This document shows, in pieces, positions 44,127 to 63,527 of a stretch of DNA of 64,000 nt (position 1 is the first letter of the stretch; every line of letters begins with the position of its first letter). The translations under genes and the position numbers were made by a program. This DNA is from Octopus vulgaris (Eukaryota), in contig OX597816.1 of the NCBI GenBank assembly GCA_951406725.2, forward strand, positions 47,306,001 through 47,370,000, written 5' to 3'. The notes beneath the pieces were generated by a model. It was not told where the DNA came from, did no database searches, and was given only the letters and a program-made list of their open reading frames with translations.

Positions 44127-44445
44127 TGGAGGCACATGGCCTAGTGGTTAGAGCAGCAGACTCGAGGTCAAAGGATTGCGGGTTCGAATCTCAGACCAGG
44201 CGATGTGTGTGTTTATGAGTGAAACACCTAAGCTCCACGCAGCTCCGGCAGAAGGTAATGGTGAACTTCTGCTGACTCTTTTGCCACAACTTTCTCTCAC
44301 TCTTTCCTCCTGCATCTTGCAGCTCACCTGCAATGGACCGGCGTCCTGTCCAGGTGAGGAACCTATACGCCAAGGAAACTGGGAAAACGGGAAACCGGCC
44401 CTATGAGCCAGGGATGGCTGAAGAAGGAACAAACAACAAACAAGA
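44127..44445 (+). mobile_element. tRNA-derived SINE group B, full length with 13-bp TSD
   Basis: TSD agttgtaactggg at 44114-44126 and 44446-44458; B box GGTTCGAATCT. Confidence 0.93.
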
Positions 44446-46650: not shown

Positions 46651-47001
46651 ATTTGTATTGCTGAGTTACTGAGCACTTGCCTAAGTGCATTGCTGAGTTA
46701 CTGTGCACTTGGTTATTTATATTACTGAGTCACTGAGTACTTGGTTATTTGCATTGCTGAGTTACTGAGCACTTGTTTAATTGCATTGCTGAGTTACTGA
46801 GTACTTGGCCATTTGTATTGCTGACTTACTGAGCACTTGGTTATTTATATTGCTGAGTCACTGAGCACTTGGTTATTCGTATTGCTGAGTTACTGTGCTC
46901 TTGGTTATTTTATTGCTGAGTTACTGCACATTTGGTTATTTGTATTGCTGAGCCACTGAGCATTTGGTTATTTGTATTACTGAGTTATTGAGCACTTGTT
47001 T
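46651..47001. repeat. 32-bp minisatellite, 11 units
   Basis: Consensus atttgtattgctgagttactgagcacttggtt, no spacers. Confidence 0.95.
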
Positions 47002-47212
47002 ATAAATAAAAATGTTCTTCCCTGAATGTTCTGTGCTAGTCTCTGAGGCAAGCACACATATAGATATATTCACTTCAGTCTGCCTGTTTGACAATGAAGT
47101 TGCACTCTAGCTTACATGATAAAGTGGCTCTTGACAGAATGGCCACCCAATAGTTAAAAAAACAAAAAAACAAAACAAAATCAAAAAGACATTGCTTAAA
47201 GTAATAAGTATA

Positions 47213-51998: not shown

Positions 51999-52932
<934 letters not shown>

Positions 52933-54147: not shown

Positions 54148-54218
<71 letters not shown>

Positions 54219-54273
54219 CGGAGATGTACTTGCATAGCAAGTGACTTGATCTGAGATCGTGTGTTGGAACGAA

Positions 54274-54540
54274 AACAATTGCAGCATGGAAGGTGTTTAT
54301 AAGCCATTTAAGAAACACCAAAAACCATTAGATTCACTTCAATATTTAAATTTAAATTGTCATAATATTTTCATCGCTTTGAGATCGCAACCTGTTCGCT
54401 GACATGCAGCACGAAGTGAACAGGTCACGGTCTCAAATCAACGAAAATATTTTGACAAATAAAATTTAAATGTTGAAATGAATCTAACGGTTTTTGTGTG
54501 TTTCTTAAATTGCTTATAAACACCTTCCACACTGCAATTG

Positions 54541-54542
<2 letters not shown>
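54274..54542. mobile_element. Fold-back element with paired G3-C8 hammerhead motifs
   Basis: About 127-bp arms; minus 54358-54404 reads tgtca-GCGAACA-g-gttgc..gcgat-GAAA-atat-TA-tgaca; plus copy has core GTGAACA at 54416-54422. Confidence 0.75.
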
Positions 54543-54578
<36 letters not shown>

Positions 54579-56650: not shown

Positions 56651-57403
56651 TAAGAAGCATTGGATGTGGCATGCAAGAGAGACATCTGCACTGGTATGGT
56701 CATGTACTACGGATGGATGAGGGGAGATGTGTGAAGAAGTGCCACTCCCAAACAGTTGAAGGAATCTGGGGTAGAGGTAGACCCAGGAAGACATGGGATG
56801 AAGTGGTCAAGCATGACCTTCGAACGTTGGGTCTCACAGAGGCAATGACGAAAGACCAAGACCTCTGGAGATATGCTGTGACTGTGAAAACCTGACAAAT
56901 AACGTGAGTTCATGGCTGTTTCCTGCACCAGCTTCACATGAAGCTCCAGCCCATCCAAAGTACCCTGGATCGCAGGACAGCCTGCTGTGCTTACCTTGGA
57001 TTATAGGGCGACCTGCTGTGCTTGAGGAGACCTATTGAGTCAAGTACATCAACATCAAAAAACCAAATGGAAATTGTAGTTGCGATACCTGTGCCAGTGG
57101 CATGTAAAAAGCACCATCCGAACGTGGCTGATGCCAGCGCCACCTTGACTCGCTTCCATGTCAGTGGTATGTAAAAAGCACCAACTGATCGTGGCTATGG
57201 CCATCCTCCTCTGGTACCTGTGCCGGTGGCTCGTAAAAAGCACCCACTACACTCATGGAGTGGTTGGTGTTAGGAAGAGCATCCAGCTGTAGAAACACTG
57301 CAAGATCAGACTGGAGCCTGGTGAGGCCTCCTGGCTTCCCAGAGCCTGGTCGAACCATCCAACCCATGCTAGCATGGAAAACGGACATTAAACGATGATG
57401 ATG
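56651..57403 (+). mobile_element. 5'-truncated RTE-clade LINE
   Basis: QERHLHWYGHVLRM..GRGRPRKTWDEVVKHDL..LWRYAV*, 3' UTR, (GAT)n tail. Confidence 0.9.
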
Positions 57404-60813: not shown

Positions 60814-61019
60814 AAATAGATGTGTGTATTTTTCCCTTGTTAATAATTAACACGGAAAAACTATATAAATAGTTACCAGGGTAGCAAAAAATCACACAAG
60901 TAAAAAGGGTGTAACACCTTGTTTTTAAAGGTAGAAACTCCAGTTTTACTTGAAATATTTTGTATGATATATATAAATAGATAAATGGAGTTAAACGCAG
61001 GTGTTATTCAAATTCTTTT

Positions 61020-61108
61020 ACTTCCGACACATGTTTCGAAGATATCACTAGTATTATTTCAAAGGAATAAAATGGTGTAAAACAATGTAATCTTCTCTTC
61101 AGGGAAAT
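61020..61108 (-). ncRNA. Type I hammerhead ribozyme, canonical core
   Basis: atttcc-CTGAAGA-gaagat..atcttc-GAAA-catgtg-TC-ggaagt; all three stems pair; GUC triplet. Confidence 0.88.
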
Positions 61109-61358
61109 GAAGAAATATAACTCGTCAATAAGACATTTTAACAGAATATGATGGATATGTATAGTGATTAACTGAATGCTATTAAGCTTTTTCAAAATAA
61201 CGTTATAGGATATAATGTCAAAGGTAGCCTATAGAAAGAGGGGGGATATATATTTATATAGTTATGTGCTCATCAATGGTTTTACACCCCTTCCATACAT
61301 GCATACATGCACATATATATATTTGTATGTATGAATGTATGAATCTGTGCATATATTA

Positions 61359-61395
<37 letters not shown>

Positions 61396-61515
61396 TATAC
61401 CTTTGATGTTATATCCATAACGTTTTTTTGAAACAATCTTAATAGCGTTCAGTTAATCACTATACATATCCATCATTTTCTGTTAAAATGTCCTTCTGAT
61501 GAGTTTCATTTCTTC

Positions 61516-61604
61516 ATTTCCCTGAAGAGAAGATTGTATTGTTTTACACCATTTTATTCCTTTGGAATAATACCAGTGATATCTTTGAAACATGTGTTGG
61601 AAGT
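61516..61604 (+). ncRNA. Type I hammerhead ribozyme, partner copy
   Basis: atttcc-CTGAAGA-gaagat..atcttt-GAAA-catgtg-TT-ggaagt; two C-to-T changes at CpG sites. Confidence 0.8.
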
Positions 61605-61637
61605 TAAAGAATTTGGATAACACTCACATTTAACTCC

Positions 61638-61701
<64 letters not shown>

Positions 61702-62221: not shown

Positions 62222-63527
62222 TCATCATCATCATCATCATCATCGTTTAACGTCTGCTTTCCATGCTAGCATGGGTTGGACGGTTCAACTGGGTCTGGGA
62301 AGCCAGGAGGCTGCGCCAGGCCCAGTCTGATCTGGCAGTGTTTCTACTGCTGGATGTCCTTCCTAACGCCAACCACTCCGAGAGTGTAGTGGGTGCTTTT
62401 TATGTGTCACCTGCACAGGTGCCAGACGAGGCTGGCAAACGGCCATGATCGGATGGTGCCTTTTACGTGCCACCTGCACAGGTGCCAGACGAGGCTGGCA
62501 AACGGCCACGATCGGATGGTGCTTTTTAAATGCCACCAGCACAGAGGCCAGTCGGGGCAGCGCTGGCAAAGGCCATGTTCGGACGGTTCTCTTACATGTC
62601 ACCAGCACTGGTATCTCAGCTACAATTTCCATTGATGTTGAAAGATTTCGATTTCGATTTTGATTTTCACTTGCCTCAACAGGTCTTCACAAGTAGGGTT
62701 TGTGTCACAAGAAGGAACGGTATGCATAAGTGGGCTGGCTACATCCCAGGTAGAGGTTACGGGTTATGGTCTCACTTGTCCTGCTGGGTCTTCCCACGCA
62801 CAGCATACTTCCAGAGGTCTCGGTCTCCGGTCATTTCCTCAGTGAGACCTAAAGTTCGAAGGTCGTTCTTCACCACCTCGTCCCAGGTTTTCCTGGGTCT
62901 ACCTCTTCCCACAGGTTCCCTCAACCGCCAGGGTGTGGCACTTTTTCACACAACTATCTTAATCCATTCTCGCTACATGACCATACCAGCGCAAATGTCT
63001 CTCTTGCACACCAGAACTGATGCTTCTTAGGTCCAACTTTTCTCTCAAAGAACTTACACTCTGTCGAGTATGAACACTGACATTACACATCCATCAGAGC
63101 ATACTGGCTTCATTTCTTGCAAGGTTACGCATATCCTCAGCAGTCATGGCCCATGTTTCACTGCCTGTAGCATGGCTGTTCGTACACATGCGTCAAACAG
63201 TCTGCCTTTTGTTCTGAGCGAGAGGCCTTTTGTCACCAGCAGAAGTAAGAGCTCTCTGAACTTTGCCCAAGCTATTCTTACTCTAGCAGTTACACTTTCA
63301 GCACACCTGCCCCCGCTACTGACTTGGTCACCTAGGTAACGGAAGCTATCAACTACTTCTAGTTTTTCTCCCTGGAATGTGGCGGAAGTTGGTCTCTGAG
63401 CATTTTCAGTGTTTATTGCTCCTGAGCATCTGCCACATATAAAAACTATCTTCCCAGTTAGCCTTCCTTTGACATTGCTGCACCTCTTATGTGTCCATAG
63501 CTTACACTTGGTGCATCTTATAGAGTT
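62220..63527 (-). mobile_element. 5'-truncated RTE-clade LINE, pseudogenised
   Basis: LEVVDSFRYLG..AWAKFREL..GSETW..WYGHV..GRPRKTW with a frameshift near 63166 and in-frame stops; 3' UTR and (GAT)n tail. Confidence 0.92.

Follow-up and report, generated by a model that had tools for sequence, protein, structure and literature searches.

The palindrome that lies between two (TA)n runs at positions 54274–54542 of the window, by which we mean the whole stretch of 64,000 nucleotides of Octopus vulgaris DNA (contig OX597816.1) that was analysed, is, judging from its sequence, one decayed insertion of a Penelope-like element (PLE), in which two end-pieces, composed of pLTR and first codons, are joined 5′-to-5′; it is an ordinary dead insertion. 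The family to which it belongs carries a hammerhead motif with G at position 3 and C at position 8, and this swap is a fixed trait of the family, not the noise of a single copy. Our reading, to which we give a probability of roughly 0.65, is that the palindrome is such a decayed end-piece insertion and that the fixed G3-C8 hammerhead of its family is likely a slow self-cutting RNA, assisted by protein or by dimerization.

The two arms of the palindrome are ~87% identical, and a 20-nt probe gave 2 matches against 0.02 expected. The motif cores, GCGAACA at 54399–54393 on the minus strand and GTGAACA at 54416–54422 on the plus strand, both read outward and both have the G3 and C8 that the original prediction had seen in them. 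The left, or long, arm (54217–54404, minus strand) runs from stem I via what we call the tail to the long 3′ end, with 93.7% identity to family copy L010 (element positions 20–208); its 3′ end at 54217, which fits the long end class described below, lies 57 nt beyond the 54274 at which the stretch had been thought to start. Its hammerhead motif (54358–54404, minus strand) consists of stem I (54404–54400/54362–54358), the core at 54399–54393 with G3, C4 and C8, an extra G at 54392, stem II (54391–54387/54377–54373), GAA, the palindrome at 54369–54364 and A17 at 54363. In a descriptor scan, stem I (TGTCA/TGACA), a five-pair stem II after one extra G, and the palindrome AATATT of stem III are in register, as had been predicted, although stem II includes two G-U/U-G pairs, and these wobbles are CpG-type decay, not compensation. 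This arm also carries C4 and A17 in place of the U4 and U17 of the family; none of 62 sampled family arms deviates at position 4. Positions 54217–54307 (minus strand) hold the first ~30 codons of the PLE ORF, which continue into a long ORF in L210, L209 and L270 and align with the N-termini of sister families, and both the short end and the tail lie inside this ORF start.

The right, or short, arm (54404–54542, plus strand; 93.0% identity to L010, positions 24–151) starts at the common 5′ end of the family and finishes at the short 3′ end, a short deletion having taken the 5′ strand of stem I. What is left of its hammerhead (54416–54457, plus strand) keeps the core GTGAACA intact, with stem II broken and stem I unpaired, and no hammerhead fold was obtained for this arm. 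The canonical pairs kept are 14/14 in L010, 12/14 in the left arm and 5/14 in the right arm. The (TA)n target runs occupy 54152–54216 on the left and 54543–54573 on the right, and a target-site duplication is unreadable within them. It is extremely improbable that the inverted pair itself would be a working ribozyme dimer maintained by selection: G3 and C8 are found in both cores and each arm has its palindromic stem III intact, but the motifs lie on opposite strands, the right arm is without stem I, the left arm has U4C and the CpG-type decay, the divergence of either arm from a typical family copy is ~7%, and an RNA that read through both would be one hairpin of 269 nt (−145 kcal/mol); moreover, the inverted layout is a common one, as will be seen, in this family. 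Both copies in the window are likely inactive.

At the level of the genome, the exact 47-nt motif is present in 443 copies and a downstream 35-mer in 3175, while a 35-nt pattern gave 1183 matches, 1147 with G3 and 36 with another letter; of the first 100 with G3, 97 also have C8. From these counts, G3-C8 would be the master state and the remaining ~3% scattered decay. A C3-G8 subfamily inside the family was considered and rejected, given that 0/36 of the non-G3 matches have G8. The consensus and copy count that the original prediction had proposed as a check thus place the swap throughout the family, and the variability of positions 3 and 8 across copies, which it had named as evidence against itself, was not seen beyond this scattered decay. 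Over core positions 3–9, no other letter reached the threshold of 4–5% in the contigs of the runs labelled organisms A, B, C and D; those of organism E barely cover the core. The family core, GUGAACA, departs from the CUGANGA consensus of the minimal type I hammerheads of PLEs, so that a CUGANGA descriptor would miss it, as had been anticipated. The intact copy L010 has all the rest: stems I and II, GAAA, U16.1-H17, the palindromic stem III and the extra base between 9 and 10.1. Between a young (28 arms) and an old (18 arms) subfamily, 0/42 structured positions differ, against 9/66 of the others (one-sided p 0.009); 7/9 of these differences fall in the leader and loop II, and the downstream 44 nt are likewise well conserved.

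On sequence grounds the family belongs to an autonomous PLE with reverse transcriptase (RT) and GIY-YIG endonuclease (EN), and the hammerhead motif is located in its pLTR. At least 170 copies extend upstream, and 2 of the 30 that were fetched (L133, L115) reach the end of the GIY-YIG coding region ~1.1 kb upstream. In a younger subfamily (~85% RT identity; L160, L161, L162, L174), open frames of 718–1025 aa precede a motif with the same core and stems, which comes ~1 kb after the intact RT-GIY-YIG ORFs. The pLTR is found on both sides of the coding region: in L210 it leads directly into the ORF, the first 30 codons of which are the 3′ part of the long arm in the window, and in L160 it follows the ORF, a 1025-aa open frame with a YVDD motif and EN. 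A GIY-YIG match above the Pfam cut-off was obtained in L139; for the RT, no Pfam family was matched at E 0.1, and there was a weak tblastn match to another PLE RT. A CX2-5CxxC linker and a CCHH motif, a trait of the Neptune/Nematis type (PMC8557442), can be read in the translations of L160 and L163. The first GIY-YIG search had led to other PLE families, with 1/30 loci holding a piece of the G3-C8 element, upstream of the match. The possibility of a non-LTR retrozyme was rejected, since the sampled insertions are single or inverted, not head-to-tail tandem, and include the ORF start. A metagenome scan returned relatives in 2/67 candidate stretches (41–46% identity), one of which ends ~55 nt past the match; in the other (L390:1500–1861, 41% identity), a canonical-looking CUGAAGA core with a short stem stands downstream of the ORF.

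The ends of the insertions were surveyed in 87 arms, recognized by a downstream anchor among the first 100 matches on contig C1. Their 3′ ends fall into two classes, 44 at a short site and 42 at a long one, 57 nt beyond it, with 1 elsewhere; their starts lie in 38/87 within −3 to +6 of one AG ~20 nt before the core, while 14/87 extend upstream. Inverted pairs make up 40/82 of the sampled insertions, and their composition is long plus short in 36/40 and long plus long in 0/40. Of 29 loci, 26 could be parsed, and 11/26 have a non-TA direct repeat of at least 8 nt, which we read as target duplications. In the scheme that we propose, the protein of the element would nick both strands of AT-rich DNA, reverse transcription would start at two internal sites of the RNA, giving the long and the short ends, each cDNA would extend to the 5′ end of the RNA, which lies ~20 nt upstream of the core, and the cDNAs would be joined 5′-to-5′ to each other. 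A comparable behavior has been seen in vitro with PAc, a Poseidon-clade PLE of Anolis, where both strands are cut and then extended and where RT starts at two internal sites (PMC11167929), and the octopus family is like PAc in having two internal RT starts that bound the tail in the ORF start, and in its AT-rich targets. Because the end classes fit the two-internal-start scheme of PAc, the short copies would probably be, by analogy, cDNAs that began at the 5′ copy of the priming site and ran off at the RNA start. Two convergent pairs 2.7 kb apart proved to be inverted segmental duplicates. L101 and L102 are nested inverted segmental duplications of ~2–5 kb, each with a palindromic copy of the G3-C8 element, and on contig C16, at ~4.8–7.4 Mb, at least ~19 upstream-extended copies are clustered, probably by local duplication.

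The original prediction had based its argument for selection on three 3-8 pairings within 10 kb of one another. Of these neighbours the C-G motif is real, whereas the U-A motif is without GAAA in both arms, and the comparison fails because neither the C-G nor the U-A motif, near 61.5 and 52.8 kb respectively, has DNA homology to the element (no significant match, best E 0.43); local covariation was therefore rejected. It is in homologous sister families that the pair does covary. Two of these, a sister and a third family, have an ORF N-terminus in common with the G3-C8 family, and the motif at the same place, 92–135 nt before the ATG. The sister, with 57% RT identity and a 1312-aa ORF, gave 4244 matches, of which the first 100 include 93 with C3 and G8; position 9 is C in 84/100 sampled copies and A in 15. 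The third gave 1886 matches, with U3 and A8 in 89 of the first 100 and a C3·A8 mismatch in 9 of 100. The C-G sister (family B, for example L163:1130–1178 and 5718–5766) is young and abundant, with many near-identical 1312-aa ORFs that carry an Asn-rich insert.

An alignment of 15 rows, which included both arms of the window, distributes the 3-8 pair as CG 5, GC 5, UA 4 and other 1, so that the Watson-Crick pair, as had been claimed, is kept, as G3-C8 here and as C-G and U-A in the homologues; 3/5 pairs of stem II change on both sides. The covariation score was 0.589, against 0.274 when shuffled and at most 0.181 in slid controls, although it corresponds to three lineages and not to 15 events, and the related rows inflate the shuffle test. 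Stems I and III covary between the G-C and C-G families, the U-A rows not being in register over these stems. Across the 15 rows U4 (14/15), G5, A6, A13, A14 and an H17 residue are kept. A tree of the N-termini separates the G-C and U-A groups (100/100, 99/98); it has 24 rows, after two matches of 70 residues or fewer were dropped, and being unrooted gives no order of the changes. By comparison of these sequences, then, a real 3-8 covariation holds among homologous sister families, with compensatory changes in the stems, and the hammerhead fold is likely under selection. That the likeness to a hammerhead would be accidental, or that G3 would owe its fixation to an overlapping DNA signal (promoter or splice region) rather than to RNA structure, seems to us very improbable: the motif does lie ~20 nt downstream of a strong cluster of 5′ ends preceded by promoter-like or splice-acceptor-like sequence, and no hammerhead family figures among the best 150 of 284 Rfam matches, but against this stand the compensatory changes that homologues show in all three stems and in the 3-8 pair, a position equal to that of the published PLE hammerheads, and an intact copy with every one of its pairs canonical, in which stems I and II form in the minimum-energy fold.

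As to catalysis, the 3-8 pair belongs to the cleavage-competent core of the hammerhead, and so its joint change in three lineages is what catalysis would predict; changes at A9, for their part, impair cleavage. We consider it rather unlikely that the same element and fold would have had their catalysis relaxed or lost in this clade, the shape being kept as a protein-binding or translation element in which any 3-8 pair, and even C9, would be tolerated. The C9 of 84/100 copies in a sister that has many intact 1312-aa ORFs would agree with this, as would the fact that copy starts do not pile up at the cut, 70/87 arms running through the predicted site, and the results in the lizard PLE, where mutants with a dead ribozyme showed normal insertion in vitro and RNA-seq gave no read ending at the cut (PMC11167929). 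It is opposed by that joint change and by the retention of U4 (14/15 rows), G5, A6, A13, A14 and H17. A group of copies that start at the cut (3/87, nominal p 0.005) was looked at in this respect and was explained by an internal deletion, a microhomology junction and a doubtful short alignment. The C3·A8 mismatches in 9/100 of the U-A family likewise count against catalysis. Nearest-neighbour calculation gives −25.4 kcal/mol for a double-hammerhead dimer against −24.8 kcal/mol for two monomers, and −30.6 kcal/mol for the minimum-energy dimer; in this model the double hammerhead is barely favoured over the monomers and is not the minimum-energy dimer. Returning to the assisted, slowly self-cutting RNA that we prefer, measurable cleavage by an intact copy of the family is reasonably probable, by the left arm of the window improbable, and by the right arm hardly to be expected at all. 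The broader proposal, that of a natural, high-copy, catalytically active G3-C8 hammerhead in a PLE clade with three 3-8 pairings and a C9 core, we advance tentatively, at a little short of an even chance. The selection that had been claimed from covariation therefore stands on the homologous families and not on the local motifs, and as selection on ribozyme function it is supported with respect to the fold, whereas cleavage is a further inference against which some of these results weigh.

The place of the motif in the RNA depends on what the common 5′ end represents. Ahead of it there is a TATA-like run (−30) with an initiator-like TCAG, but equally a branch-point-like CTAAC with pyrimidines and AG; a transcription start is favoured, with a splice acceptor as the less probable reading. 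The Penelope element itself has been described with an internal promoter plus a pLTR intron (PMC2377424). In L112, L160 and L210, copy starts cluster at the AG, and the adjoining ATG opens a short frame through the ribozyme. The ATG of the family is 92 nt downstream of the core. The motif would stand in a 5′ leader that extends ~58 nt from the RNA start to the predicted cut, and a further 56 nt from there to the ORF ATG. A minority of the RNAs would be cut, for translation or for processing to unit length, and the uncut ones would be the templates. A role of cleavage in translation is a lead that we take, by analogy, from the hammerheads of viral 5′-UTRs (PMC13725137).

Minimal hammerheads in the pLTR, with the extra base, U17 and the U3-A8 variant, have already been published (Cervera and de la Peña, 2014, PMC4209133), and the octopus motif is like those of metazoan PLEs in its type I layout, its pLTR position, the extra nucleotide between 9 and 10.1, G10.1-C11.1, the short palindromic stem III and the common U17 (PMC4209133). 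It differs in its core, GUGAACA against CUGANGA, no G3-C8 being found among the alignment rows of that work seen here, and in its extra base, which is G against the consensus H, although the Nasonia row there has G (PMC4209133). Natural U3-A8 covariation is also described by Perreault et al. (2011, PMC3088659), together with a natural U4C that is less active in vitro; G3-C8 is not named in the portions of the text of that article that were available. In the laboratory, G3-C8 has appeared as a rescue or a variant (PMC11167929; PMC8495972; PMC3884650). The hammerhead of PAc is protein-assisted, C3G/G8C partly rescues it, cleavage is dispensable for insertion in vitro, and the main template is uncut RNA (PMC11167929). 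In contrast to the octopus family, with its natural G3-C8, its ATG 92 nt downstream and its Cys-rich RT-EN linker, PAc has a canonical core and an ORF that starts within the ribozyme. Compared with the EN+ PLEs of the Neptune/Nematis type (Craig et al., 2021, PMC8557442), the sister ORF is longer (1312 aa, with the Asn-rich insert) and the tail is ~57 nt against 30–40. No report of a natural G3-C8 was found in the literature searched, the coverage of which was partial, and so the natural G3-C8 hammerhead of a PLE is provisionally new.

The chemistry of the swap is not in itself surprising, as it partly works in the laboratory; as for the purpose of the PLE hammerheads, the cut is unneeded for insertion in vitro (PMC11167929). 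Here three homologous and successful families are distinguished by their 3-8 pair, one of them also by position 9, and since two have intact ORFs, cleavage rate could be compared with mobility and translation. If the proposal is true, the clade would be a natural mutational scan of the hammerhead core with which to ask directly whether PLEs need cleavage, possibly for turning on translation of the ORF. At a practical level, the CUGANGA and UUGANAA descriptors undercount genomic hammerheads, with more than 1100 exact-pattern copies in the octopus genome.

Other features accompany the palindrome in the window and in the genome. The inverted pair at 60967–61657 holds a canonical CUGAAGA hammerhead whose stem II carries a ~55-nt insert; the C-G motif cores are at 61522 (plus) and 61102 (minus), and the minus arm looks intact. 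At 52051–52879, another inverted pair has a decayed U3-A8 hammerhead-like motif (core at 52807), with GAAA damaged in both arms. Two short opposite-strand pieces of the end of the C-G sister lie at 27944–28335. Minisatellites are found at 46651–47003 (32 bp, 11 copies) and 28819–29079 (54 bp, 4.8 copies). We also take the repeat at ~44130–44400 to have a tRNA-like head, and the two opposite-strand copies at 56769–56913 and 62766–62910 are presumably the 3′ end of a LINE. Finally, a further PLE family (L067, L072 and similar) has many intact 781-aa frames, and the tandem repeats of its 3′ region are rich in boxes that resemble CCAAT and TGACGTCA.
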